Part shown: positions 5,602 through 60,062 of the stretch, piece by piece
Layout: each line of letters begins with the position of its first letter
How positions within the stretch are numbered: the stretch's first letter is position 1
Assembly (NCBI GenBank): GCA_902477075.1
Contig: CABSFU010000001.1
Coordinates: forward strand, 94,555 to 158,554
From: an uncultured Bacillales bacterium
Lineage (GTDB): Bacteria > Bacillota_I > Bacilli_A > RF39 > UBA660
Direction of reading: 5' to 3'
DNA length: 64,000 nt
Notes under the pieces: generated by a model
Database searches by the model: none
Seen by the model: the letters and a program-made list of their open reading frames with translations, nothing else
Told to the model about the DNA's origin: nothing
Program-made: the position numbers and the translations under genes

Positions 5602-5639
5602 GTAGTTTTAATACTTGAAATTCTAATGCTTATTTGATA

Positions 5640-5776
5640 TATTAGACATGTAAATAAAAATAGTAATATAGTTTGTAGATAGCAAATTTTTAGCGTTTGC
5701 TATATGCAAACGGGGGGGGGGAGTATTTTTAAATACCTCTTCTTTTTTGTTGCTATAAAAGGGAAGGATGAAGGAC
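5640..5776 (+). promoter_or_regulatory. Conserved 5' leader of pilin-like gene copy 1: TAGTAATAT -10-like box, GTTTGC-N5-GCAAAC palindrome, G10 homopolymer (5712-5721), hairpin plus U-run
   Basis: About 85-90% identical to the sequences upstream of the paralogs at 35940 and 40495, although the upstream genes there are unrelated. Confidence 0.45.
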
Positions 5777-6784
5777 ATGAAAAAAGGATTTACATTAATA
5801 GAATTATTAGCTGTGATAGTAATATTATCCGTGATTACCTTAATTACAGTACCAATGATAACAAATGTAATCGAAGAAAGTAAAAAGAAAGCACTAGCAT
5901 CTAGTGTAGAGGGACTAGTAGAATCCGCTAATTTGTATGCCATAGAAAAAGATGGAGTCTATGAATTTTTATTTGATGAAGAACACAAAGGAAGTACAAA
6001 AAAAGGAGAAAGCCTAGATTATAGAGGAACCATAGATGGGGAAGGAAAACTCTATTTAGATAAAGAGGGAAATGTAAGTGTTTGTATCTCAAATGATAAT
6101 TATTATGTATATAAAAACTATAATAGTGGAATTATCGTAGGAGAGAGAAAAGCTGGAAATTGTATCATAGGATTTGATGCTTTAACAAATAAATATGTAG
6201 CAATGTTAGATAATGGAACAGGGAATGTTAGTAATGTGTATTCCAAAGATGAAGTAAATAACTTAGTAGATACAAAAGTAACAGAATTAGATACTAAAAT
6301 AACAAATAATACAAATGAAATCACAAACATGAAAAGTAATATAGAAGAATTACAAAATAATTTAAATAACTATGCTTTACAAAGTGAATTGGATAAGACA
6401 AATACCAATGTAGAAAACTTATCTAGTTTGGTAAATAGCAATCAAAAATCAATACAAGAATTACAAAATTCATCTTCTAATTTAAATGGAACACATGGTA
6501 TTGTAGTTGTATTTAGTAGACTTCATTCCAATGTTTATGCTCTTTCTAATACTGTTTACATGGGAGATTTAAGAAATAAAAGTGTTTCTATAACTAATGC
6601 AGCTATCGACGGAGAAGTGTTCTTAACTGACTCAGAACTAAAAATTATAAATCAATATCTTGAAGTAGGAAAAGACGGTATAACTGTTAAATTAGAAAAT
6701 TTAAATGATTCTAACGTAGTTGCTTTAGCAAAAAAATTAGCAACAGCAGCACTTAATATGGTAGTAGTAATATCTGATAAATAA
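5777..6784 (+). CDS. prepilin-type N-terminal cleavage/methylation domain protein (pilin-like/pseudopilin-like), paralog 1
   Basis: MKKGFTLIELLAVIVILSVITLITVPM class-III signal peptide; Asn/Thr-rich coiled-coil middle region; unique C-terminal ~100 aa. Confidence 0.6.
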   Translation: MKKGFTLIELLAVIVILSVITLITVPMITNVIEESKKKALASSVEGLVESANLYAIEKDGVYEFLFDEEHKGSTKKGESLDYRGTIDGEGKLYLDKEGNVSVCISNDNYYVYKNYNSGIIVGERKAGNCIIGFDALTNKYVAMLDNGTGNVSNVYSKDEVNNLVDTKVTELDTKITNNTNEITNMKSNIEELQNNLNNYALQSELDKTNTNVENLSSLVNSNQKSIQELQNSSSNLNGTHGIVVVFSRLHSNVYALSNTVYMGDLRNKSVSITNAAIDGEVFLTDSELKIINQYLEVGKDGITVKLENLNDSNVVALAKKLATAALNMVVVISDK

Positions 6785-9099: not shown

Positions 9100-9318
9100 G
9101 TACGTAAAAATGTTGAAGGAAAGAAAAATATCTTCTTTTTGTAGAGACTTTGTGGTTGGTGTAAACAAAGAAAAGAAATATTGTAAATGGTTCTGGAGTT
9201 GCCTATGTGATATTTAGCTTAGGCCGTAATCTTGCGTTAAAAGTTTGAGATAAAAACAATGTTTTTAAATAAGGTGGTACCGCGATAAATTCGCCCTTAT
9301 AAGGTACTTTTTTTTGTT
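9100..9318 (+). promoter_or_regulatory. T-box riboswitch leader (probably Met-specific) ahead of metG
   Basis: Stem-I AGAGA motif at ~9143; canonical T-box sequence AAGGTGGTACCGCG at 9269-9284; downstream hairpin and U8 run 9310-9317 immediately 5' of the metG RBS. Confidence 0.65.
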
Positions 9319-9334
9319 GTTTAAGGAGGATTTT

Positions 9335-10888
9335 ATGAAAGAAAAATTTTATATTTCAACTGCAATAGCTTATGCTTCTGCAAAACCCCATATTGGAAAT
9401 ACTTACGAAATTGTTTTAGCAGATTCTATTGCTCGTTATAAAAGACTATTAGGATATGATGTTTATTTTCAAACAGGTACTGATGAACATGGGGAAAAAA
9501 TAGAAATTAAAGCTAGAGAAAAAGGAATCCAACCACAAGAATATGTAGATGAAAATTCCTTAGAAGTTCGCAAAATTTGGGATGTTATGAATACAAGTTA
9601 TGATAAATTTATTCGTACTACAAATGCATCTCATAAGGAAATGGTAGCTAAAATTTTTAAAAAGTTATATGATCAGGGAGATATTTATAAAGGAATTTAT
9701 CAAGGCCTTTATTGTACACCTTGTGAGTCTTTCTGGACAGAAACACAGTTAGTAGACGGCAAATGTCCTGATTGTGGCAGAGAAGTACATGTCGCAGAAG
9801 AAGAGGCTTATTTCTTTAAATTGAGCAATTATAGTAAAAGATTAGAAGAATATATTGAAACACACCCAGAATTTATTAAACCTGAAAGTAGAAAAAATGA
9901 AATCGTAAATAACTTTATAAAACCAGGGTTACAAGACCTTTGTGTATCTCGTACATCATTTGACTGGGGTATTCCAGTATCATTTGATGATAAACATGTT
10001 ATTTATGTATGGATTGATGCTTTAAGCAACTATATTACTTTCTTAGGATATGATGTAGATGGTAATCATTCAGAAGAATTTAAAAAATATTGGCCAGCTG
10101 ATATTCATTTAATCGGTAAAGATATTTTACGTTTTCACACAATTTATTGGCCAATTATGTTGATGGCTTTAAATTTACCACTTCCAAAACAAGTTTTCGG
10201 TCATCCATGGGTATTGTTTGGAAATGACAAGATGAGTAAATCGAAAGGAAATATTTTATATGCTGATGATTTAGTAAAAGAATTTGGTGTAGATGCTATT
10301 CGTTATTATTTACTTCATGAAATACCTTATTCTAATGATGGATCAATTACTTATGAATTAATTATTGATCGTATCAATTCTGATTTAGCAAATATTTTAG
10401 GAAATTTAGTAAACCGTACGATTTCTATGTGTCAAAAATATTTTAATGGAATCGTCTATGAACCAACTACTTACACTGAATTAGACTTAGAATTAAGAGA
10501 TATGGTAATGTCTTTACCTAATAAAGTAAAAGCAAAAATGGATGATTTGAGAGTAGCAGAAGCTATTGATGAGATATTTGAGGTATTAAGAAGATGTAAT
10601 AAATATATAGATGAAACAACTCCATGGATTTTAGCAAAAGAACAAAATGAGGAAAGGTTAAAAACAGTATTGTATACATTACTAGAATCAATTAGAAGTT
10701 GCGCTGTAATGTTGCAACCATTTTTACCAGATACAGCAGATGAAATTTTTAAACAATTAAATACAGAAAACAGATATATTGACAGTATTAATTTTAAAGG
10801 AATGGATCCATTAATTAAATTGAATGAACCAACTCCTTTATTCTTAAGAATTGATAAAGAAAAAAAATTACAAGAATTATCTAAATAG
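9335..10888 (+). CDS. metG: methionine--tRNA ligase (short form)
   Basis: HIGN (HIGH-type) motif, CxxC...CxDC zinc knuckle and KMSKS motif; RBS GGAGGA. Confidence 0.9.
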   Translation: MKEKFYISTAIAYASAKPHIGNTYEIVLADSIARYKRLLGYDVYFQTGTDEHGEKIEIKAREKGIQPQEYVDENSLEVRKIWDVMNTSYDKFIRTTNASHKEMVAKIFKKLYDQGDIYKGIYQGLYCTPCESFWTETQLVDGKCPDCGREVHVAEEEAYFFKLSNYSKRLEEYIETHPEFIKPESRKNEIVNNFIKPGLQDLCVSRTSFDWGIPVSFDDKHVIYVWIDALSNYITFLGYDVDGNHSEEFKKYWPADIHLIGKDILRFHTIYWPIMLMALNLPLPKQVFGHPWVLFGNDKMSKSKGNILYADDLVKEFGVDAIRYYLLHEIPYSNDGSITYELIIDRINSDLANILGNLVNRTISMCQKYFNGIVYEPTTYTELDLELRDMVMSLPNKVKAKMDDLRVAEAIDEIFEVLRRCNKYIDETTPWILAKEQNEERLKTVLYTLLESIRSCAVMLQPFLPDTADEIFKQLNTENRYIDSINFKGMDPLIKLNEPTPLFLRIDKEKKLQELSK

Positions 10889-35821: not shown

Positions 35822-35939
35822 TTACTGATGTTATTGATTTAGAAAGATAGATTTTAAATTTCTATCTTTTTTAGTGTAGAAGTTAGAATGAGAATCAATT
35901 GAAGCAAAGGTACTTGAAAAAATTATTGTTATTTTGTAT

Positions 35940-36069
35940 AATGGATATAGATAAAAAATAGTAATATAGTTTACGTGTAGCAGTTAAATTTCATGTTTGC
36001 AATATGTAAACGGGGGGGGTATTTTAAAAATACTCTCTTTTTTGTTGCTATAAAAGGAAGGAGGAGGTT
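35940..36069 (+). promoter_or_regulatory. Conserved 5' leader of pilin-like gene copy 2 (G8 tract 36012-36019)
   Basis: Same conserved blocks as at 5640-5776 and 40495-40614. Confidence 0.45.
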
Positions 36070-36990
36070 ATGAAAAGAAAAGGATTTACGCTTATTGAAT
36101 TACTAGCTGTAATTGTAATATTATCAGTAATTACATTAATTACAGTACCAATGATAACCAGTGTAATAGAAGAAAGTAAAAAGAAAGCACTTGTATTTAG
36201 TGTACAAGGATTAATAGAATCCGCTAATTTATACGCTATCGAAAATGAAGGAGTGCATGAATTTTTATTTGATAAAGAACATCAAGGAAGTACCATAAAA
36301 GGAGAAAGTTTAGATTATAAAGGAAAAATAGAAGGAGAAGGGAAACTCTATATAGATAAAGAAGGAAATACGAGTATTTGTATTTCGAATGATACCTATT
36401 ATGTATATAAAAACTATAATAGTGAAATTATCATAGGAGAAAGAAGCAAAGATAATTGTAATATTGAATATGATGCTTTAACGAATAAATATGTAGCCTT
36501 TTTAGAAAGTACAGGAAGCGGAAGTAATGTATACTCCAAAGATGAAGTCAATAACTTAGTAGATAGTTTAGATACTAAAATAACAAATAATACTAGTGAA
36601 ATAACAAATCTAAAAAGTAATATCGAAGAGTTACAAAATAACTTAAATAATCTATCTAGCGTTGTTAATAATAATAAAGAAAAAATAGATAGTTTAAATA
36701 GCAAGTTAGTTAATGTAATCGTTAAAAATATATATAAAGAAACAAAATCATATTCAATAGTTAAAGGTGTAAATGTGGTGGTATTTGATATTCCACAAAT
36801 TGATGGGTATAAACCCATTATGTATGTAGCTAATGCTCATGCATGGTATCCTAACATAAGGCCATACGGTAATGAAAGCTCTCTAATATATGATAATGCA
36901 AGTAACATTGGTGTTTATTATTACTTTGATGCAGATTTTACACTTGATGGTGGTAATTTTAGTTGTACAGTATTATATATTACTGTTTAA
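36070..36990 (+). CDS. prepilin-type N-terminal domain protein (pilin-like), paralog 2
   Basis: MKRKGFTLIELLAVIVILSVITLITVPM; N-terminal ~200 aa shared with the other two paralogs; unique C-terminus. Confidence 0.6.
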   Translation: MKRKGFTLIELLAVIVILSVITLITVPMITSVIEESKKKALVFSVQGLIESANLYAIENEGVHEFLFDKEHQGSTIKGESLDYKGKIEGEGKLYIDKEGNTSICISNDTYYVYKNYNSEIIIGERSKDNCNIEYDALTNKYVAFLESTGSGSNVYSKDEVNNLVDSLDTKITNNTSEITNLKSNIEELQNNLNNLSSVVNNNKEKIDSLNSKLVNVIVKNIYKETKSYSIVKGVNVVVFDIPQIDGYKPIMYVANAHAWYPNIRPYGNESSLIYDNASNIGVYYYFDADFTLDGGNFSCTVLYITV

Positions 36991-51081: not shown

Positions 51082-51110
51082 AAACTCTTATTTTTTAAGA
51101 GTTTTTTTGT
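51082..51110. terminator. bidirectional rho-independent terminator
   Basis: AAAACTCTTATTTTTTAAGAGTTTTTTT between convergent genes. Confidence 0.6.
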
Positions 51111-51476
51111 ATTTTATTTTCTAAGTAGTAGTTTCTCAATTCTTTAAATCTTTGGTAATGAATAATTTCTCTTTGTCTTAAAAAAGATAATGGAGCTAAA
51201 ACAGATATATCATTAGTCAAATCCATTAAATGTTCATAAGTAGCGCGAGCTCTTTGTTCTGCGGCCATATCACTTTCAATATCTGCTATAAAGTCACCAC
51301 TTGTTTCAATGTAAGACGTTGTAAAAGGCACTCCCATAGCATCAGCAGGGAATAAGGCAGTATCATGTTCAGCAAATATGCCACCTAAACCAGCTTGTTT
51401 CATTTCTTCTATTGTTGCTCCTTTTGTTAATTGATAAATCATGGCACCAATCATTTCTAAATGAGCTAATTCATTT
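51095..51476 (-). pseudogene. cotJC: 3' two-thirds of a cotJC-like manganese-catalase-family spore coat gene, truncated at its 5' end by prophage insertion
   Basis: ...ELAHLEMIGAMIYQLTKGAT...FLRQREIIH aligns with CotJC residues ~75-189. Its open frame runs into the attachment junction, where it meets a stop 15 nt from the stop codon of the serine recombinase gene. Confidence 0.6.
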
Positions 51477-51494
51477 TTACAAGTATGTTATCAG

Positions 51495-53654
51495 TTAAAA
51501 AGACAACAATATAATCTTGAGAGAAAAATTCTCTTTTAAGTATCGACCGCCTTTTTCTTTCTTATAAATTACTTGTTTTATTATAGTTGATAATAAAGCG
51601 TTTTTTTCTTCTGCGGTCATATCTTTTGAATATTTACTTATAACATCTTCTAAAATTGGTATAGCTTTCTTTTTACTATATAAATCTTTAGTTCTATCTT
51701 TTGACTTAGATAGTTCTGTTTTTTGATTTAATAATGTTTCTAATTGTTCATTTAAAGTATTAGTTCTTTTAATAAATAAATCTTGAGTATATGCTCCAGT
51801 CTCTACTAATTCGCAAGCCTTTTCTATTTGGCTTTTTATTTTATCTATTTCGTGATCTATTGCTTCTATCATTTCCTTATTAGTACATATTTCTTTTTTT
51901 ACTGCTTCTTCATAATTATTAACATAGTTTTTATATTCACTCATTATTATTTTAAGAGATTTTAATATTTTATCTTCTACAAGTTCTAATTCACTTGATA
52001 CACACTTACATCTAGGTCTACTACACATTAAAGTATCTGTATGTGGTGGAGTTATGCTTTCTTCTATTGTAGTTATAGCTTTATCAAACTCGTTTGTTTC
52101 TATATTCAATAGTTTTTTTAGATCCTCCCATTTATCAGCGTGTGGTATACAAAATTTCTCGTCGTTAGAACTAAACCAATGATCCACAGAGTTTTTAGAA
52201 ACGTGTAGAGCTCTAGCTATGTCATTAAGACTATAATTTCCTTTATGTTCCCTTAATAATAATCGTAATTTAGGCTTATCTATATCATAAATACGTTTAG
52301 CGGTAGGCTTAGCGTCTTTTCTTAAATAATATGGACGTCTAGTCATATTATTACCACAATAGCCACATACAACCAAACCTAATAAAGGGTTTTTCATTTC
52401 TTTATTATCTGGCACTGTTTTAAGTCTGTTAGATAAAAATTTAGCTTCTATCTGTTGTTTTATATCTTCGCCGAGTATTGCTTCGTGTTTACCTCTAACA
52501 AGCGTAAAATCGTCATTATTAGGGTTTTTCTTAACAATATGTCCATTTACTAGTGTCTTAGTAGTTTTACGTCTGTCCCACGTCAAATAGCCGTATATAG
52601 TGTAACCCTGTAATATATTTCTAACCATATTAGCGGTCCACTCTTTAGACTTTCTAGGTTTTATTTTAAGATAATTAAGATAGTGTGCTATATTAGTAGC
52701 TCTCATATCATTTAATATAATCTTAATATTTTCTCCTGGTTTAAAAAAGTTATGAGGTATATGTATATTGTTTATATCTATATTATAGCTAGCTGCTATA
52801 CTTTCCAATGTATCATTTTCTTTTATTTTATATGGTAATGATTTACTATTAACTGTTAATCTTATTTCTTGATCTACTTTTAAATCTAAATTACAAGTGA
52901 TTATATCTTTCTTATGTGTTCCAAACAATTTAGCTATATCTGATATAATCTCGTTTTCTTTAACAGTGTAAGTAGTATTTAGTCCGTTTAAGAATAAATC
53001 AGCTAATAATTTTACTACTTTAGACTCTGACTCATTTTCTACTAAAACATAACCTTTCTCGTTAGGTATTTTCTGTTTATTATAACCGTATGGCAATACA
53101 GAACCAACGTATTTACCGTCTTTAACACTTCTTAATCTACCACGAGCTAATATACGTTTAGTATATTTTAAATATTTTCTAGCTTGATATAAACCGTCTT
53201 CAAAATAAGATAAATCGTCCTCGTTATCTAAATTATATATTTTCATAGGAGTTATTATCTTTGTGTTGGAATATTGAAAAGCTTGAGCTATTATTCCCTG
53301 GTCCATAGTATTACCACGAGCTAGACGTTCTATTTCAATACATACAACTCCTTTTACACGATCTTCTTCTATTAAAGATAATACTTCTTGAATTATTGGA
53401 CGATCTTCGATAGTATCTCCAGACGCTACCTCTCTATAAATATTATGCTCTGGTATTGGCTTACCGAAAATACTTACAATAAAGTCTTGTAATTCTTTTT
53501 CGTGTCTTTGTAAAGTCTTTTCTATAGACTCGTCTTTATAATAGTCCATATCTTTACGTGATTTTCTTAAATATATTATAAACATATCTAGTATCTCGTC
53601 GACAGTAAGGTCCCTAGATACGTTCATTATTTGTAAAAATGTATCTAAATTCAT
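51495..53654 (-). CDS. large serine recombinase (phage integrase)
   Basis: YLRKSRKD catalytic Ser region, recombinase domain, CGYCG...C zinc ribbon and C-terminal coiled coil; 719 aa. Confidence 0.85.
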   Translation of the reverse strand: MNLDTFLQIMNVSRDLTVDEILDMFIIYLRKSRKDMDYYKDESIEKTLQRHEKELQDFIVSIFGKPIPEHNIYREVASGDTIEDRPIIQEVLSLIEEDRVKGVVCIEIERLARGNTMDQGIIAQAFQYSNTKIITPMKIYNLDNEDDLSYFEDGLYQARKYLKYTKRILARGRLRSVKDGKYVGSVLPYGYNKQKIPNEKGYVLVENESESKVVKLLADLFLNGLNTTYTVKENEIISDIAKLFGTHKKDIITCNLDLKVDQEIRLTVNSKSLPYKIKENDTLESIAASYNIDINNIHIPHNFFKPGENIKIILNDMRATNIAHYLNYLKIKPRKSKEWTANMVRNILQGYTIYGYLTWDRRKTTKTLVNGHIVKKNPNNDDFTLVRGKHEAILGEDIKQQIEAKFLSNRLKTVPDNKEMKNPLLGLVVCGYCGNNMTRRPYYLRKDAKPTAKRIYDIDKPKLRLLLREHKGNYSLNDIARALHVSKNSVDHWFSSNDEKFCIPHADKWEDLKKLLNIETNEFDKAITTIEESITPPHTDTLMCSRPRCKCVSSELELVEDKILKSLKIIMSEYKNYVNNYEEAVKKEICTNKEMIEAIDHEIDKIKSQIEKACELVETGAYTQDLFIKRTNTLNEQLETLLNQKTELSKSKDRTKDLYSKKKAIPILEDVISKYSKDMTAEEKNALLSTIIKQVIYKKEKGGRYLKENFSLKIILLSF

Positions 53655-53775
53655 TATAGCACTTTCTTTCTTTATAATTTTATGCTATAATCGTATAGAA
53701 AAGCCTATACAATTATAGTTGGTTGTTTCTTCTATTTTGTTTTAAGTGTGATAGCTTTTAGGGTTTTTCATTTCA

Positions 53776-53810
53776 ACGCTTCGTGTTCGCGCACGAGGCG
53801 TCTTTTTTTT
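53776..53810 (+). terminator. GC-rich hairpin plus T8 (terminator-like) between int and the repressor
   Basis: ACGCTTCGTG-ttcgcg-CACGAGGCGT followed by TTTTTTTT. Confidence 0.4.
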
Positions 53811-54037
53811 ATGCTTTTTTACCTTTCGAGCAAGAAAACGTACATTTCGAGCAATGTTAATCACAATTAACGGTAAAAAATGGTAAAATGTTGTATTAAA
53901 ATTTATAATATACCCCTAAGGAGGGGGTTAGTATGAAAACTAAATATGATGTGTTATATGAAAAACTGCTTAATGATCATATTAACATCAGTTTATTTAT
54001 TAAACTACTTGAGTATATCAAATAAGATATACTCTTT

Positions 54038-54406
54038 TTATTTGTCCTCTTTATCAATTATAAATTCTTTGTTTTTTTCTATAAATTTCATAAGCTTATC
54101 AAAATTTTCTTCTGATAAATCTTCGCCGTCAAAAAGATTATTTTCTTTTAAAGCGTCTTTCAATTTACTTTTGATATTTTTGGTAGCTTTTTTTTCTTCC
54201 CAGTCAAGCATATAGTTAGCGTCTACTCCTAATACTTTACATAAAAGCATTATGCTATCTGCGTCTGGTTTATGATTTCCACTTTCCCAGTCGCTAATAG
54301 TGTTATGAGATACGCCTAATTGCTTGGCAAGCTCTTTTTGTGTCATATTTTTATTTTTTCTTGAGTTCCTTATATTATCACATAAAGCCATATTAGTTAC
54401 CTCCAT
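54038..54406 (-). CDS. cI-like phage repressor (XRE HTH)
   Basis: MTQKELAKQLGVSHNTISDWE HTH; divergent from the cro-like gene. Confidence 0.7.
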   Translation of the reverse strand: MEVTNMALCDNIRNSRKNKNMTQKELAKQLGVSHNTISDWESGNHKPDADSIMLLCKVLGVDANYMLDWEEKKATKNIKSKLKDALKENNLFDGEDLSEENFDKLMKFIEKNKEFIIDKEDK

Positions 54407-54560
54407 TTCATTAAAATTTTATCACAAAAAATATGTATAGTAAATAAATAATTTCGAAAAAATCGAAAAAATTAGCGTTTTTGTATTGACATTTCGATAA
54501 TACCGAATTACAATGTATATAGAGTTCGACAATATCGAAGTCTTGGAAGGAGGAAATTAA
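54407..54560. promoter_or_regulatory. phage immunity switch region: three palindromic operators (54453-54467, 54493-54507, 54525-54539) with a rightward sigma-A-like promoter (-35 TTGACA 54486-54491, -10 TACAAT 54509-54514)
   Basis: TTCGAaaaaaTCGAA, TTCGAtaataCCGAA and TTCGAcaataTCGAA; the middle operator fills the 17-bp promoter spacer. Confidence 0.55.
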
Positions 54561-54818
54561 ATGTCAAACCCTAAATCACTAGAAGTAGGAAAAAAGATAA
54601 AGTTACTTTTGGTAGAACATAATATCAACCAAAATCAAGTAGCAAGATACCTAAATGTTAGTGATTCTTTATTTTCTGATAAGTTAAATGGAAAAGTAAA
54701 GATTACTGTAGACGAATTTTACGATATTATTACTTATCTAAATGAAGAATTTAACATTACTGTAGACGCTAATTACTTTATGCCACAAACACCAAACGAA
54801 ACATCAGACACTAACTAA
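54561..54818 (+). CDS. Cro-like XRE-family regulator
   Basis: INQNQVARYLNVSDSLFSD HTH; RBS GGAAGGAGG. Confidence 0.55.
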   Translation: MSNPKSLEVGKKIKLLLVEHNINQNQVARYLNVSDSLFSDKLNGKVKITVDEFYDIITYLNEEFNITVDANYFMPQTPNETSDTN

Positions 54819-54842
54819 CATAAAATTTAATGAGGTGTTGAA

Positions 54843-55085
54843 ATGGAAAAAAACGAAAGCTATCACACAATAAAAAACTTAACACTAGGTCAAACAGAAA
54901 TTGAGATATGTATAGAGAGTATTCCAACAATAGAAGAAAAAAGAAATCATTTAATAAAAATATATGACGTCGTAAATGATATAGCTAGAAAAGCTGAAAA
55001 ACGCGGCGTTGATACTTCTAAATGGTTTTATACAGAAAAACAATTAAAGCTCTTAAAACAAGATCCAATAAATGAATTTATCTAG
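54843..55085 (+). CDS. phage hypothetical protein
   Basis: ORF in the early operon. Confidence 0.3.
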   Translation: MEKNESYHTIKNLTLGQTEIEICIESIPTIEEKRNHLIKIYDVVNDIARKAEKRGVDTSKWFYTEKQLKLLKQDPINEFI

Positions 55086-55462
55086 TAAATCAATTTAAAA
55101 AAACAAAGGAGAAACAATTATGAAAAAAAAATACAGGCTTAAAAAATGGGTAAAAGTAACCCTAAATATATTATGCGCAATAAGCGTATTTATAATACTT
55201 GCTTTATTAGTGAAGAAAGGAGTTAATGACTTTGAAGATTTGGCTAAGCAATGTGATAAGGAATATGGCTATACTTGTACTTATTACGATATTAGACAAT
55301 ACTCTTTAGGTAAATAAATTATGTATGTTAAAGAAAATAAAAAAAGATTTATGAATTGGATCAGAACTCATAAATCAAGTTGTAAACTTTCTTATAATTT
55401 ACTCTCTAATTGTACCATAATTTGGGGGTAAAAGTCAAAAAATGGACGATTGGAGGTAAAAC

Positions 55463-56131
55463 ATGAAAGATAGTTATATAATGCACTGCGATTACGGAAA
55501 TCATTTTGAATTATTAACAGACGCTGAATTAGGTCGGCTTATAAGAGATGTAAATAACTATGTTAAAAATGGTGTTTTGCCTCAATATACAAAAGAGGAT
55601 CGTGTTCTAAATATGGCCTTTAGTTTTATGAAAACTAACATTGATATAGAAACAGAAAAATATATAAAAAAATGTGAAAAAAATCGAGAAAATGGCCGTC
55701 GTGGTGGTCGACCTAGAAACCCAGAAAAACCGAACGGTTTTGAAGAAAACCCACAAGAAACGAAAAAAGCCGATACTGATACTGAAACTGATACTGATAC
55801 TGAAACTGATACTGATACTGAAACTGATACTGAAACAAACATAAAAAAAAGTGTGTGTGATAAAAGCGCACGCGCAAAAGAATTTTATTGTCATTTAGGA
55901 AGTGATTATAAATCGGAGTCATGTTTCTACTGCATGAAAAAACAGATATGTCCTAATAAGGAGTCTACGGAGTTTAGATTAAACCACCGAAACGAAACTT
56001 TCGACGAGTGGAATAAAAGACACGAAGATTATCGGGAACAACTTATTGAGGACTTAAAGTCCAGGGGGAAGGATCCAGATATAGAGCTTATCGACTATGA
56101 CTGGTTAAATGAAGATAATGATATAGATTAG
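55463..56131 (+). CDS. phage early protein with an internal acidic (TDTE)n repeat; possible replication-module protein
   Basis: Contains an 18-bp tandem repeat; basic RRGGRPRN stretch; C-terminal Cys cluster. Confidence 0.35.
   Translation: MKDSYIMHCDYGNHFELLTDAELGRLIRDVNNYVKNGVLPQYTKEDRVLNMAFSFMKTNIDIETEKYIKKCEKNRENGRRGGRPRNPEKPNGFEENPQETKKADTDTETDTDTETDTDTETDTETNIKKSVCDKSARAKEFYCHLGSDYKSESCFYCMKKQICPNKESTEFRLNHRNETFDEWNKRHEDYREQLIEDLKSRGKDPDIELIDYDWLNEDNDID
55782..55847 (+). repeat. tandem repeat, 18-bp unit GATACTGATACTGAAACT x3.7
   Basis: Direct reading of the sequence. Confidence 0.8.
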
Positions 56132-56151
56132 AAAATGGAGGAATAATTATT

Positions 56152-56427
56152 ATGAAAAATACTATAACAAAACAAGATATAGATAACATTTTAAAAGATA
56201 CACTAATTAAAGTTGAACAATACGGAGATAAAACAACCGTTTTAAAAGCTACATTGCCTAATGACTTTGTAATTGTTGAGAGTTCTAGCTGCGTAGATCC
56301 TGCAAACTTCGATATGAAAATTGGAGAAGAAATATGTATGGACAAGCTAGTTAATAAAATTTGGGAACTTGAAGGCTATAAACTTCAATGTCAAACTAAG
56401 GAGGTAGCAGAAAATGGAAATAACTAG
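56152..56427 (+). CDS. phage hypothetical protein
   Basis: ORF with RBS GGAGGAATAATTATTATG. Confidence 0.35.
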   Translation: MKNTITKQDIDNILKDTLIKVEQYGDKTTVLKATLPNDFVIVESSSCVDPANFDMKIGEEICMDKLVNKIWELEGYKLQCQTKEVAENGNN

Positions 56428-56668
56428 CGTTAAAGTAAAAAAAATAAATGAAGAAAACTCTCGTTTAGTTGGAGCTGCTTCTGTAGTTGTTGATAAAGAA
56501 TTTATTATCAAAGATATAAAAATTATTAAAGGAGACGACCGTCTATTCCTGGCTATGCCTAGTCAAAAAATGCCAGACGGCTCATACGCAGATTTAGCAC
56601 ACCCTCTTAATGTTGAGTGTCGCAAAAAATTTGAAGATATTATTTTAGCAGAATATGATAAGTGCTAA
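56414..56668 (+). CDS. spoVG: SpoVG-family protein (phage-encoded)
   Basis: MEITSVKVKKINEE...FLAMPSQKMPDGSYADLAHPLN closely parallels SpoVG (MEVTDVRLRRV...[22 protein letters not shown]). Confidence 0.7.
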   Translation: MEITSVKVKKINEENSRLVGAASVVVDKEFIIKDIKIIKGDDRLFLAMPSQKMPDGSYADLAHPLNVECRKKFEDIILAEYDKC

Positions 56669-57200
56669 TGAATTATGGAAGTCAATAGAATATGATACTC
56701 GTTATCAAGTATCAAACTATGGACGTTTTAGAAAGAAAAACCCTAAAAATGGTTATAGATATTTAAAACCTTTTAGAAAACATAATCTATTTTTAGTAAA
56801 GATTAAAGATAAAGATTTTAACTGTGCTCGATTAGTCGCTAATGCTTTTATTAAGCAATTAGCTTCTAATGATAGAGTCTATCATAAAAATAAAATAGAA
56901 TTTGATAATTACTATAAAAATTTAGAAGTTATATCTTTAAAAGAGCTTGGTAAACGAACTGGCTATATATCAAAATCTAAACGAGTTGTAGAAGTTAAAA
57001 ACGGCGAGATTATAAGAGACTGGCCTTCAAGTAGAAAAGCCGCTAAAGACTTATATATTTCTTATCAGACCGTTTCCGACTACTGCAATAATAAGGTAGA
57101 AAGCCCTATGTTTAATCTTATGTGGGAAGACGATTATTTTGACGAAGTATTAGAGCCGTTTAAATGGGAACATAAAAAAAGAAAGGAAAAAAAGAAATGA
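56655..57200 (+). CDS. NUMOD4-motif/HNH-type homing-endonuclease-like protein
   Basis: WKSIEYDTRYQVSNYGRFR NUMOD4 signature. Confidence 0.55.
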   Translation: MISANELWKSIEYDTRYQVSNYGRFRKKNPKNGYRYLKPFRKHNLFLVKIKDKDFNCARLVANAFIKQLASNDRVYHKNKIEFDNYYKNLEVISLKELGKRTGYISKSKRVVEVKNGEIIRDWPSSRKAAKDLYISYQTVSDYCNNKVESPMFNLMWEDDYFDEVLEPFKWEHKKRKEKKK

Positions 57201-57559
57201 AAACTAAAATCAAAAACACAATAAAAGACATCATTGATTATACGCTAACAAATGAATTTAAAGCTTTAGTAATGATTATGTTATTTATGTTCTTATGTGT
57301 TTCCCTATTCTGGGGTGCTATATGTACAGTAATGACTAATGACATTACAGAAGTAGCTACAGAGCAAAAAGAAGAAAATATAAAACTTCAAGCAGAATAT
57401 GACAAGTTATCTCAAGAGTACGCTCGTATGAAAATGGCTTATGAGGAAACTTACGAACTATTTACTACTTGTCAAGAGTCTACATCTTGGTATGAACAAT
57501 TTTATTATGACAATGTAGATCCAACAACTGGAGAAATTGAGGGGGAATATTATGAGTAG
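57197..57559 (+). CDS. phage membrane/coiled-coil protein, hypothetical
   Basis: One TM segment followed by a coiled coil. Confidence 0.3.
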   Translation: MKTKIKNTIKDIIDYTLTNEFKALVMIMLFMFLCVSLFWGAICTVMTNDITEVATEQKEENIKLQAEYDKLSQEYARMKMAYEETYELFTTCQESTSWYEQFYYDNVDPTTGEIEGEYYE

Positions 57560-57893
57560 TATTATTTGTTTATTATTAGGTTTAATATTAGGCTCTGGTT
57601 TATGTTATCTTGCCTTTAATCAAGTATTAACTTCTAAAGACGATATTATAGACGATTATAAAAAAGGTATAGAAATACATAATCAAAGAGAATTAAAACT
57701 TATATATATAAATCAGTCTACTAAAGACTATGTAAAACAACAACAAGATATTCTTAAAACTGTACCTATTAAGGTAAAAGAAATTACAGACGAAGCTAGT
57801 TTACAAGCTGGTAGATATATGGCTTTAAAAGATATAGAAAAAACTATTATTCAATTAGAAAAGAACTCCGAAAGCTTAGTAAATAAAAAATAA
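57537..57893 (+). CDS. phage membrane protein, hypothetical
   Basis: N-terminal TM segment. Confidence 0.3.
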   Translation: MRGNIMSSIICLLLGLILGSGLCYLAFNQVLTSKDDIIDDYKKGIEIHNQRELKLIYINQSTKDYVKQQQDILKTVPIKVKEITDEASLQAGRYMALKDIEKTIIQLEKNSESLVNKK

Positions 57894-57904
57894 GGAGTGA
57901 TGTT

Positions 57905-58534
57905 ATGCCTAGAGTGTTTAGAAACAAGTTCGGTCGTAAAACTGTTAGACCTTTCAAAAAGCAAGATCTAAATAGTATGATCGTAATTTGTAAGAAAAAT
58001 AAAAACGCAGCCGAAGAAGAAGAAAACAAAGAACAAGTTTATTTATGGGATCGTAACTATATGATACTACACCTAGGTAGAAATCTAGCTTTTCGTATAG
58101 AGGATCTATTACAGTTGAAAACTGATAATTTTAAAAATGGAGGTATTTATACAAGAGAGTTCAAAACTGGTAAAGAACAAGCTTTTGAACTCCACCCTTC
58201 ATTGAGAAAAGATTTAGAAGATTATATAAATAGAAATAAGCTTGTTGAAGGAGAATATTTATTTAAAAGTCGTAAAGGTACTAATATACCTATTACACGT
58301 CAAAGAGCTTGGCAGATTATTAAAGAATTATCAGACGAAGTTAAAGTATCTTATGTTGTAGGCTGCCACTCCTTACGTAAGTATTTTGCTAGAGAGTATT
58401 ACGAACAGACTGGAGATTTAATCGGTTTAAAAGAAATGTTAAATCACTCTAGCGAAACAGTAACATTAAGGTATATATGCTGGGAAGAAGACGACAAAAA
58501 CATCAAGCGAAAGAACTTTTATTTAGGAGGTTAA
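57905..58534 (+). CDS. short tyrosine-recombinase catalytic-domain protein (phage integrase family, no N-terminal core-binding domain)
   Basis: LGRNLAFRIEDL (Arg I), GCHSLRKYFA (H-x-x-R) and LNHSSETVTLRYI (terminal Tyr) motifs; RBS AAGGAGTGA. Confidence 0.5.
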   Translation: MPRVFRNKFGRKTVRPFKKQDLNSMIVICKKNKNAAEEEENKEQVYLWDRNYMILHLGRNLAFRIEDLLQLKTDNFKNGGIYTREFKTGKEQAFELHPSLRKDLEDYINRNKLVEGEYLFKSRKGTNIPITRQRAWQIIKELSDEVKVSYVVGCHSLRKYFAREYYEQTGDLIGLKEMLNHSSETVTLRYICWEEDDKNIKRKNFYLGG

Positions 58535-58536
58535 TT

Positions 58537-59082
58537 ATGCAAGTAGTTAATTTTAATCAAAAACAATGGCGTCAAGATTTTGCCGCATACGTTAAAGATA
58601 AATTGGACTGGTCCTCCGCTAGAGTAACAAAACCAGAAGTTATCAAAAAAGGTTATTATGATAATTCTTTGGGAGAACGCCTTTCCTCATTAAAAGAATT
58701 TAGAGTTATTAACGGAACTGGTGGCGAAGTTAGAATACAATACTATCACAACAATATTGTTGGCGAAGACGGTATGACTTATACTGATCGTGATTTTGAA
58801 CTAGTTTACAATTATTTAAAAGAAGCAGAAAAAGAGCCATTATGGTTATTGATGAGTGATTTCTTTTATAAAAATAAATGCAACTCTGGTTTAATAAGTG
58901 AAGATAAAGACTACTACGCTTTTAGAAAAAGGAAAAAACTTTATAGAGTCTATAGAAAAGACAACGATAAATTTAAGTTAGAAATTGAAGAAGTACATTT
59001 ATTTGAGTATGTAGATTTAAAAGTAATAGATAACTTAAATAGTATTGAAGAAGTAGAAAATACAATATTACAGTATTTTTAA
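58537..59082 (+). CDS. phage hypothetical protein, paralog A (VNFNQKQWRQDF motif)
   Basis: RBS AGGAGG; N-terminal ~60 aa shared with 60285-60623. Confidence 0.4.
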   Translation: MQVVNFNQKQWRQDFAAYVKDKLDWSSARVTKPEVIKKGYYDNSLGERLSSLKEFRVINGTGGEVRIQYYHNNIVGEDGMTYTDRDFELVYNYLKEAEKEPLWLLMSDFFYKNKCNSGLISEDKDYYAFRKRKKLYRVYRKDNDKFKLEIEEVHLFEYVDLKVIDNLNSIEEVENTILQYF

Positions 59083-59264
59083 AAAACTAATAACAATTTT
59101 ACATAATGAAAATATGTAAATTGATATAAAAAATAACACTTTCCTGATGTCGGGAAAATGCTTATAAAATCTGGGTAAAACTACTCTTTTATAGGGTGGC
59201 TAGTGAATTTAACAGAATTATGTCATTTTGTAAAATTCAATATATAGGAAATGAGGTGCTAGAA

Positions 59265-59561
59265 ATGCTTGTATTACCAATAAAAAAGAAATGGTTTGAC
59301 ATGATACTTAGTGGAGAAAAAAAAGAAGAATATCGAGAAATAAAACCATATTATGATAGTCGCTTAAATAAAAAAGTAAATTTTTGTGAAAGTACAGGTT
59401 ATGGTTATTATATTCTTTTAAGAAATGGTTACTCAAAAAATAGTCCTACTCTAAAAGTTGGTTGTGTAATAAAAAAAGATTATGGTAACCCTGCTTGGGG
59501 AGCAATACCAGGTCAACTATATTATGTTTTAAAAATATTAAGTGTTGAGGTGGTTAAATGA
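59265..59561 (+). CDS. ASCH-domain (PUA-like) protein
   Basis: GEKKEEYR matches the ASCH GxKxxExR motif; RBS GAGGTG. Confidence 0.45.
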   Translation: MLVLPIKKKWFDMILSGEKKEEYREIKPYYDSRLNKKVNFCESTGYGYYILLRNGYSKNSPTLKVGCVIKKDYGNPAWGAIPGQLYYVLKILSVEVVK

Positions 59562-59834
59562 AAGCTTTTATAAAAAAAGAAAAATGGGAAGAATTTAAAA
59601 AAGATTATGTAAAATATGGTTTCTCACTTGCTGTTTTCCCAGATAAATTTTATACAAAACCAATAGATAGATTTTTAGTAATACTTATAAGCCGAAAAAC
59701 TAGAGAAATTAAACTTAGAACACCATACGGAGAGAGTCCATTTATGGAAGTTCAAGGAAATTATTTCGAAGATCTAATAATTAATAATTTTGTTGAATAT
59801 AAAAAAGGTATATTTGATTAAGGAAGGTGTCGAA

Positions 59835-60062
59835 ATGGCTAAATTAAAAGATAAAATAGTTGGTTATATTTCTCCTAAACAAAGAAAAATAAATACACTA
59901 GAAAATAAAGTCTCTACTCTTGAAGGAGTAATAAAAGACGAATTATATAATCTATTTATCGAAAAGCTGGGAGAACCAGCAGAAATGAAACGTCTAAAAA
60001 AAGACAATAAAAGATTAAGGCAACAAAATAAGTCTTTAAAAGAAATAATTAAAAATAGTTAA
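59835..60062 (+). CDS. phage coiled-coil small protein
   Basis: RBS AAGGAAGGTG. Confidence 0.3.
   Translation: MAKLKDKIVGYISPKQRKINTLENKVSTLEGVIKDELYNLFIEKLGEPAEMKRLKKDNKRLRQQNKSLKEIIKNS

Follow-up and report, generated by a model that had tools for sequence, protein, structure and literature searches.

The question raised by the 64,000-nucleotide stretch of DNA analysed here, referred to as the window (contig CABSFU010000001.1 of an uncultured Bacillales bacterium, positions 94,555 to 158,554; GC content about 27%), is what purpose is served by three dispersed genes, named copies 1 to 3, whose products begin as prepilins with a class III signal and end in tips of differing sequence. With moderate confidence, these genes are read here as encoding phase-variable modular type IV (minor) pilins, the effector module of which is a stalk and head of the phage tail-fibre kind. 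Each gene is a self-contained unit comprising a promoter/leader region with a poly-G tract, the class III signal, a pilin module, a long helix and a tip of 65-120 amino acids (aa), this tip being one of many unrelated sequence families.

Three genes with a shared N-terminal region

5777-6784, plus strand: copy 1 gene (335 aa); its sub-parts, approximate and placed by alignment to the copy 3 model, are the class III signal and pilin module (to ~6230), the long helix (~6245-6505) and the tip (~6506-6781)
36070-36990, plus strand: copy 2 gene (306 aa), with its tip at ~36715-36987
40615-41583, plus strand: copy 3 gene (322 aa)
40615-41064, plus strand: copy 3 class III signal and pilin module (AlphaFold2 model and PF07963), with invariant Cys104 and Cys130
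41086-41346, plus strand: copy 3 helix, a putative trimeric coiled-coil stalk (AlphaFold2 model; residues 158-244, containing ITNNTNEI)
41326-41580, plus strand: copy 3 tip, a predicted eight-strand beta sandwich (AlphaFold2 model and homologues with phage-fibre signatures)

The open reading frames (ORFs), their matches to PF07963 and TIGR02532 and a drop in identity along the alignment bear out the original prediction, made from the letters of the window, that three genes here share a class III signal and have divergent ends. Over alignment columns 1-198 the proteins of copies 1 and 3 are 92% identical, while copy 2, the most divergent paralogue with a coiled coil 18 aa shorter, is 80-82% identical to either; past column 198 identity among the three falls to 21-39%. 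In the DNA, copies 1 and 3 share 88% identity, near to the ~90% predicted, but across 817 nt (5633-6445 and 40480-41286) rather than the predicted ~650 nt, in which the upstream extension had been missed. Copy 2 is 80-82% identical to copy 1 or 3 across 720-770 nt. The homology between copies begins not at the ATG but ~135-165 nt upstream of it, and it ends abruptly within the genes at 6445, 36655 and 41286. Copy 1 also has an alternative ATG at 5768, which is too near the ribosome-binding site (RBS).

Pilin module and stalk

All three proteins start MK(x)KG followed by FTLIELLAVIVIL (also given as FTLIELLAVIVILSVITLI), which is a class III signal, and they score 26.7-29.9 bits against PF07963 N_methyl (gathering cut-off 21.2) and 28-31 bits against TIGR02532 (cut-off 16.3). 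Gly-1, Phe+1 and Glu+5 are invariant in the 46 family members compared, and none of the three copies has a cysteine near the signal to form the lipobox of Vlp-type lipoproteins. Matches to the NCBIfam equivalogs of ComGC (35.6-38.2 bits, cut-off 75), GspG (28.5-32.6 bits, cut-off 88.85) and GspH (16.7-17.6 bits, cut-off 80) align the N-terminal helix alone, and that of ComGD (32.7-36.5 bits, cut-off 70) reaches over the first ~100-117 residues. Because these scores are far under the cut-offs, and because the matches in a sequence search of the PDB are confined to alpha1 of PilE1, MshA and geopilin, the proteins are pilin-type but not orthologues of any named pilin.

The AlphaFold2 model of copy 3, built on a 46-sequence alignment, has a 51-residue alpha1 helix (residues 8-58) and a beta sheet of six to seven strands (residues 63-145), with a predicted local distance difference test score (pLDDT) of 72-87 in the pilin part. 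After a dip in pLDDT at residues 150-156, between the pilin module and the second helix, there follows an unbroken helix of 87 residues with a pLDDT mostly of 75-92, dropping near its C-terminal end. The tip is poorly predicted within this full-length model but folds independently at a pLDDT of 94, giving the pilin module plus separate C-terminal module by which modular pilins are defined. A Foldseek search of the PDB with the elongated full-length model gave no match.

As predicted, N-x-S/T sequons are numerous, with 8-10 in the Asn/Thr-rich stretch of each protein. The ITNNTNEI of the stalk helix is an I-x-x-N-T-x-x-I unit, which we take to be typical of Asn-at-d layers in trimeric coiled coils, and the motif suggests such a coiled coil at least as well as it does glycosylation.

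Copy 3 tip and phage tail fibres

The sequence relatives of the copy 3 tip show that it shares ancestry with the C-terminal domain of phage tail-fibre/receptor-binding proteins. An exhaustive HMMER search with the 85-residue tip against 1.84 billion representatives (E ≤ 1e-3) gave 49 homologues, most of which, long repetitive proteins apart, are proteins of 65-515 aa that have it at their very C-terminus; a pilin N-terminus was found in none of the 16 that were read. P0133 possesses PF22337 Phage_fiber_rpt (3.5e-14) and aligns to copy 3 residues 159-322, thus to the coiled-coil part as well as the head, with 39% identity (E 1e-32). Its contig has a GC content of 29.6% and the adjoining gene product carries PF21939 Gp10_C (baseplate or fibre) together with the fibre repeat. 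P0150 has PF24243 Phage_tail_C, P0179 has PF12789 and tail-fibre PHROG matches, P0159 matches phrog_9994 (1e-59) and tail-fibre PHROG matches are likewise present in P0175. P0153 matches tail PHROG 13289 (6e-12), and its gene immediately precedes those of an endolysin and an r1t holin; the contig encodes an integrase and an S24 repressor as well. In siphophages the receptor-binding protein is usually encoded there, just ahead of the lysis genes. The genes for P0156 and P0164 lie on short contigs, and their context is uninformative.

Modelled on its own (17-sequence alignment), the tip is predicted to be an eight-strand beta sandwich, with a pLDDT of 94.2 and a predicted template modelling score of 0.80. 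Structure prediction, which had been proposed along with the original prediction, has therefore yielded a separate and well-predicted tip for copy 3, though one without a significant fold match. In 50,697 phage genomes, tblastn with the three tips had no match, and scans of IMG/VR, made with these tips and with P0133, brought up no close relatives.

Two further observations concern these C-terminal regions. The tip homologue P0148 (231 aa) has an N-terminal hydrophobic signal/transmembrane segment (MNKWKTKFRELIIFVLGIIFATCSIVLA) that is neither phage-type nor pilin, for which reason heads of the copy 3 type are possibly displayed via other bacterial anchors also. PHROG matches of ten stalk-plus-tip segments were set aside, as these only pair low-complexity coiled coil with large tail proteins.

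Upstream cassette and poly-G tract

5612-5776, plus strand: copy 1 conserved upstream cassette (inter-copy homology, alignment and promoter scan), with a sigma70-like TTGAAA-17-TATATT (5615-5643), conserved leader, C/U-rich anti-Shine-Dalgarno (anti-SD) stretch and RBS
5712-5721, plus strand: copy 1 poly-G tract, G10 followed by AG
35911-36069, plus strand: copy 2 conserved upstream cassette (homology, alignment and promoter scan), with TTGAAA-17-TATAAT (35914-35942, 11 of 12 matches), leader, anti-SD stretch and RBS
36012-36019, plus strand: copy 2 poly-G tract, G8, which with UAUUU/AAAUA and CUCUCUU forms a predicted terminator-like hairpin (36012-36040)
40480-40614, plus strand: copy 3 conserved upstream cassette (homology and alignment), with a promoter-like TTGAAT-17-TAAGAT just upstream (~40453-40481, by eye from the alignment)
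40559-40564, plus strand: copy 3 poly-G tract, G6, at the start of a predicted terminator-like hairpin (40559-40581)

The G10, G8 and G6 tracts are located 50-55 nt upstream of the ATG and include the only runs of G or C longer than six in the window, where chance would give 0.02 such runs of at least eight and about 0.0006 of at least ten. A poly-G tract is present upstream of all 24 family copies examined (G10 in 13, G9 in five, G8 in two, G7 in three and G6 in one), whereas the pilin-like genes of more distant low-GC metagenome-assembled genomes (MAGs) are generally without it (1/58). At three orthologous loci its length differs among otherwise identical or near-identical sequences. Loci L203 and L204, which come from two samples, match at 100% across 322 nt apart from G9 in the one and G10 in the other; at the rpiB locus the tract is G6 in the window, G9 in L205 and G10 in L206, the last two encoding the identical protein P0001; and at the rpmE locus G8 in the window stands against G9 in L205. 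The orthologue of copy 1 in L208 has G10 like the window, with a different 3′ junction. Such polymorphism marks the tracts, as far as sequence can tell, as slipped-strand contingency loci, and the unstable G run probably switches each gene on and off. The antigenic (on/off) variation that had been proposed for these proteins thereby gains direct support.

The switch might act in either of two ways. In a spacer model, the tract might separate TTGCTA/TTGCAA from TATTTT by a spacer of 9+n nt, which would be the optimal 17 with G8 and 19 with the common G10; most copies would then be off, which is the situation in the Mycoplasma hyorhinis Vlp family (PMC10502178). One copy (at L001 8763) has kept the TTGCTA-TATTTT core alone, its upstream blocks being gone. 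In a leader model, the G run might pair with the C/U-rich anti-SD stretch in a hairpin of the transcript. TTGAAA-17-TATAAT/TATATT is the better sigma70-like promoter and is located exactly at the start of the inter-copy homology. In the leader transcript that would follow, the G run and UAUUU can pair with AAAUA and the C/U-rich stretch, with a U run behind, which the scan reports as a terminator-like hairpin, and the C/U stretch is complementary to the Shine-Dalgarno (SD) sequence. In an in-silico series the probability of the SD sequence being unpaired was 0.23 with G4, 0.92 with G8 and 0.98 with G10. The paired blocks of this hairpin are almost invariant, and an Rfam scan of the leader gave no family match.

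It should also be mentioned that the most invariant upstream blocks, AUAGUAAUA and UGUUGCUAU, are mutually complementary (5663-5671 with 5747-5755 in the window), and in the RNAfold prediction they form an outer stem around two leader hairpins. The same blocks are present in copy 2 and a similar fold is predicted for copy 3; as the blocks do not vary, the outer stem is without covariation. The orthologues of copy 3 (L205 9869-10000 and L206 307-439) have, relative to window positions 40559-40614, an insertion of ~73 nt located between anti-SD stretch and RBS, and the copy after parC (L203, L204) has the same arrangement. This insertion repeats the upstream TAATA(C)TATAGTTT block, which suggests recombination among the 5′ cassettes of paralogues, and it brings a different RBS.

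Family size, tip diversity and genomic sites

The family is three-membered in the window only, contrary to what had been supposed, as a protein search of public metagenomes with copy 3 gave 1,172 relatives. The best 120 of these are proteins of 300-358 aa with 65-96% identity covering just 64-100% of the query. Clustering of 123 proteins by their last 65-120 residues gave 38 tip clusters with no BLAST similarity among them, two of which consist of truncated proteins, leaving about 36 tip types; the constant-stem/variable-tip architecture put forward in the original prediction is thus a feature of the family at large. Conservation among 46 representatives exceeds 0.85 as far as residue ~215 and is less than 0.3 from ~230 onwards, with a sharp fall at 220-230. 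In copy 3 this places the family recombination boundary at residues ~220-230, or about 41275-41305. The tip of copy 1 is present in nine database proteins, and a word-index search with the 97- and 102-residue tips of copies 1 and 2 gave no match, a negative without weight since the same tips exist publicly. NCBI labels one member, from a 'Tenericutes/Mycoplasmatota bacterium' MAG, as a GspH-family protein ('type II secretion system GspH family protein').

In the window, copy 1 is flanked by mfd and a DHH-CBS gene, copy 2 by rpmE and two femAB genes and copy 3 by rpiB and spoIID. The contigs of the relatives come from human gut samples, where copies are found at 11 or more further sites, always among housekeeping genes: upstream of secE (two in tandem), in the ezrA-clpP interval, after parC, before uvrC, before murT and at three or more other loci. 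A metagenome pattern scan, whose AT-rich pattern gave mostly noise, had true matches in L106, L177 and L184 only. At the three loci of the window, the relatives have the same tip type as the window itself, from which tips appear stable per locus among the close strains sampled. The orthologue of copy 1 in L208, P0113, occupies the same site beside mfd, that of copy 2 in L205 is identical at 304 of 306 residues, tip included, and that of copy 3 at 295 of 322. Silent C-terminal cassettes, for which a search had been suggested, were not found in the window, and neither were partial copies (tblastn with all tips; blastn with the constant region and tip DNA). Variation looks like a matter of many complete, individually switched genes rather than of cassette recombination into one expression site.

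Some genes outside the family proper share parts of this arrangement. A 588-aa protein adjoining pyk (L209 18613-20440) has the same promoter, G9 leader and class III signal cassette joined to a body of a different kind, without a coiled coil and with a C-terminal region that is, by eye, a candidate FGE-sulfatase-like domain; the 5′ cassette accordingly seems to be a portable module. A 391-aa pilin-like gene after a penicillin-binding protein (PBP) gene (L216 20540-20951) is more divergent at its N-terminus and has no G run of six or more in the upstream stretch fetched. In the loci of reduced-genome gut Bacilli MAGs (L003-L082) there are numerous long pilin-like genes (130-1011 aa) with diverse C-termini, often in tandem arrays of two to four and none less than 6 kb from a secretion ATPase; one of these, in L030, is preceded by a run of G9 at a distance of 141 nt. 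In this low-GC gut Bacilli clade, display by way of class III signals may be widespread.

Search for pilus machinery

No pilus assembly genes were found in the 64 kb, as had been noted at the outset. A six-frame scan of the window revealed neither another prepilin motif nor the Walker A of a secretion ATPase, and a Pfam search of its ambiguous ORFs gave no T2SSE, T2SSF or Peptidase_A24. What these ORFs possess instead are TatD, MscS, AbgT, hybrid histidine kinase, TMEM164, Bax1-I, M23 peptidase, HD, family 4 glycosyltransferase, YetF, SNase and DHH-CBS domains. The Pfam-labelled syntenic contigs L205 (corresponding to ~29.5-51 kb of the window) and L208 (0-17 kb) hold housekeeping genes and no pilus genes, and none are located within 10 kb of any family copy. 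In motif scans of all fetched loci, secretion ATPases were seen only beside unrelated pilins of higher GC content.

Proposed function and alternative explanations

If the proteins are modular minor pilins, a prepilin peptidase encoded elsewhere would cut after the Gly, and the hydrophobic alpha1 would insert the protein into the membrane and subsequently into a type IV or Com-type filament, at its tip or close to it. The stalk helix would associate as a parallel trimer, by analogy with phage fibres and with CofB and TcpB, which are tip pilins, and the head would bind a ligand on a surface, most probably a glycan of another cell, of mucus or of the producer. Slippage along the G-tract would toggle single copies, and with copies switched one by one a clonal population would therefore display different subsets of heads. 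New heads could arise from recombination in the region coding for the coiled coil, partly with phage fibre genes. A more far-reaching proposal, rather speculative as a whole, is that a gut bacterium has domesticated phage receptor-binding modules on a pilin anchor, creating a large library of individually switchable heads that are exchanged with its own phages via the shared coiled-coil shaft and that either bind the glycans of others or occupy or mimic its own phage receptors as a programmable adsorption block. In the literature, no paper describing pilin/tail-fibre chimeras or this family was found.

Should the modular pilin reading be true, it would describe a new route to surface diversity within one compact, repeated gene unit that joins three known ideas, namely a pilin carrier, a phage-fibre head and a homopolymer switch, and would give uncultured, reduced-genome gut Bacilli a switchable binding repertoire. 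The family is also a natural catalogue of heads of 65-120 aa on a constant scaffold, which could serve research on the evolution of receptor-binding heads and on their passage between phage and host, and tract length and expression can be compared from metagenome and metatranscriptome data without cultivation.

Several points weigh against this reading. A prepilin peptidase, assembly ATPase or platform gene is present neither in the window nor in ~190 kb of the flanks of its relatives, and with that much covered, the conserved class III motif is the sole support for incorporation into a pilus. The link to phages is established for the tip type of copy 3 alone. Its profile matches no other tip cluster, and the tips of copies 1 and 2 have no matches in phage genomes, IMG/VR or the PDB. 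Foldseek searches of PDB and BFVD with the copy 3 tip model gave no significant match; the best E-values were 0.11 (PDB, R2 pyocin fibre) and 0.011 (BFVD), the weak top matches being fibre tips, those of R2 pyocin and T7 gp17. The differences in tract length are those of assembly consensus sequences and not of reads. The tips at each locus are conserved in the close strains sampled, which gives no sign of rapid tip turnover.

The absence of machinery gives room to a possible, though less probable, account in which surface display is independent of any pilus. The class III signal and helix would form a cleavable membrane anchor and the stalk would lift the variable head, serving immune, phage or antigenic evasion together with adhesion, in the manner of the archaeal sugar-binding proteins with class III signals or the variable lipoproteins of Mycoplasma. 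More than 15 loci are known, none with pilus genes nearby, and gut MAGs of low-GC Bacilli/'Tenericutes' are rich in long pilin-like genes away from secretion ATPases. The sharing of the promoter, G-tract and signal cassette with the 588-aa body of L209 furthermore parallels the 5′ cassette of the Vlp type (PMC10502178). On the other hand, it is common for minor pilin genes to be dispersed far from their machine. Peptidoglycan genes are present in the organism (two FemAB, SpoIID, MreB, MurT and PBP), and a membrane-anchored stalk of ~13 nm might fail to clear the wall. The invariance of Gly-1, Phe+1 and Glu+5 also argues against simple anchoring; Glu+5 of pilins matters for filament assembly, not for anchoring.

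It is improbable, but in keeping with the homology of the copy 3 tip to phage receptor-binding tips, one of them on a contig of similarly low GC content (29.6%), that the heads were taken from the receptor-binding proteins of infecting phages and cover the bacterium's own receptor or compete with virions for it. Adsorption would thus be blocked, tip diversity would follow phage diversity and phase variation would limit the cost. The very large number of tip types, the switching of individual copies and the presence of a prophage in the window itself all accord with such masking. The idea is purely inferential, however, and we know of no receptor-masking system of such a kind. No close phage counterpart of any of the three tips was found in the 50,697 phage genomes or IMG/VR, no defence-gene context was seen, although none was searched for with PADLOC, and adhesion is the simpler account of the same facts.

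It is very unlikely that the genes encode fibres of a prophage, a phage-like particle (such as a tailocin) or a mobile element, with the pilin-like N-terminus being incidental. The C-terminal half is tail-fibre-like and there are weak PHROG tail matches over the coiled coil; however, these matches are limited to its low-complexity sequence and the N-terminus exceeds curated pilin thresholds. The copies moreover stand alone among housekeeping genes (mfd, rpmE, rpiB, secE, clpP, parC, uvrC, murT), with synteny kept across samples and no phage genes adjoining, so that the genomic context largely refutes a phage or tailocin origin. Scarcely credible, finally, is that they are ordinary competence or type II pseudopilins (orthologues of ComGC, ComGD, GspG or GspH) that have merely been duplicated, as the 'GspH family protein' name from one source and the best NCBIfam matches (ComGC, ComGD and GspG) could suggest: the scores (28-38 bits against 70-89) and the architecture rule this out, the proteins being 2-3 times too long, with a coiled coil and unrelated tips, and not within com or gsp operons, while the further variable copies that exist answer the other half of the check set out with the original prediction.

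Comparison with known systems

Taken as modular pilins, the proteins of the window are best compared with the modular minor pilins of Streptococcus sanguinis, PilB with its vWA module and PilC with its lectin module (Raynaud et al., 2021; PMC8179133). Both sets combine a class III signal and small pilin module with a grafted, presumably exposed, C-terminal ligand-binding module, and both are found in a monoderm host. Unlike PilB and PilC, the graft is here a long coiled-coil stalk with a small head (phage-fibre-related for copy 3) and has no vWA or lectin Pfam domain, and the genes lie outside a pil operon as many paralogues with unrelated heads, each having its own poly-G promoter region.

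CofB of enterotoxigenic Escherichia coli and TcpB of Vibrio cholerae are homotrimeric type IVb minor pilins at the pilus tip that bind partners (PMC6048534, PMC5207764). These too have a pilin module followed by additional C-terminal beta domains, and they illustrate that a trimeric pilin can cap a filament. The PDB sequence search showed no sequence similarity to them. CofB and TcpB trimerise via their beta domains and not via a long coiled coil as proposed for the window proteins, and they are single-copy, encoded in operons and not phase-variable.

With phage tail fibres the family has in common a constant proximal part and a swappable distal head, and some homologues of the copy 3 tip carry Phage_fiber_rpt, Phage_tail_C or tail or tail-fibre PHROGs, one of them located before a lysis cassette. 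However, where fibres would have a domain for baseplate attachment these proteins begin as pilins, the genes stand alone in the chromosome and are predicted to be switchable, and the copy 3 tip fold has no significant structural match among solved fibre tips.

For the switch, precedents are the Vlp family of Mycoplasma hyorhinis, which is switched by a homopolymer in the promoter (PMC10502178), and a Bifidobacterium breve pilus with a G-tract switch (PMC9187656). Like Vlp, the window genes belong to a multigene family with a conserved 5′ cassette (homopolymer promoter and signal) and divergent 3′ regions for the surface part, and the tract shows slipped-strand length changes, by which expression may be switched ON or OFF. 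Vlp proteins have a lipoprotein signal with a lipobox in place of the class III prepilin signal, and they differ also in that the tract here is poly-G and the variable part a folded head rather than tandem repeats.

Other features of the window

The distal part of the window (51095-64000) is an integrated prophage-like element. Its large serine recombinase of 719 aa (51495-53654, minus strand; Resolvase, Recombinase and Zn ribbon domains with a LysM insert) directly adjoins a truncated fragment of an Mn-catalase (51095-51454, corresponding to model positions 72-189 of 284). After the recombinase come a CI-like repressor, DUF6291, NUMOD4, a tyrosine-integrase-like ORF, an HNH gene and numerous small ORFs. 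Since L205 has in the corresponding position a catalase gene (running off the end of the locus) and, in the stretch fetched, no prophage genes, the catalase gene was apparently the site of integration.

Within the constant region of each of the three copies there are antisense ORFs of 67-134 aa, most simply explained by the repetition of the DNA and not as genes. Their positions are as follows:

5623-5943, minus strand: antisense ORF
6118-6330, minus strand: antisense ORF
36414-36818, minus strand: antisense ORF
40569-40772, minus strand: antisense ORF
40959-41174, minus strand: antisense ORF

Upstream of the methionyl-tRNA synthetase gene (9314-10888) there is an ordinary T-box leader (RF00230, 118 bits) at 9104-9301.

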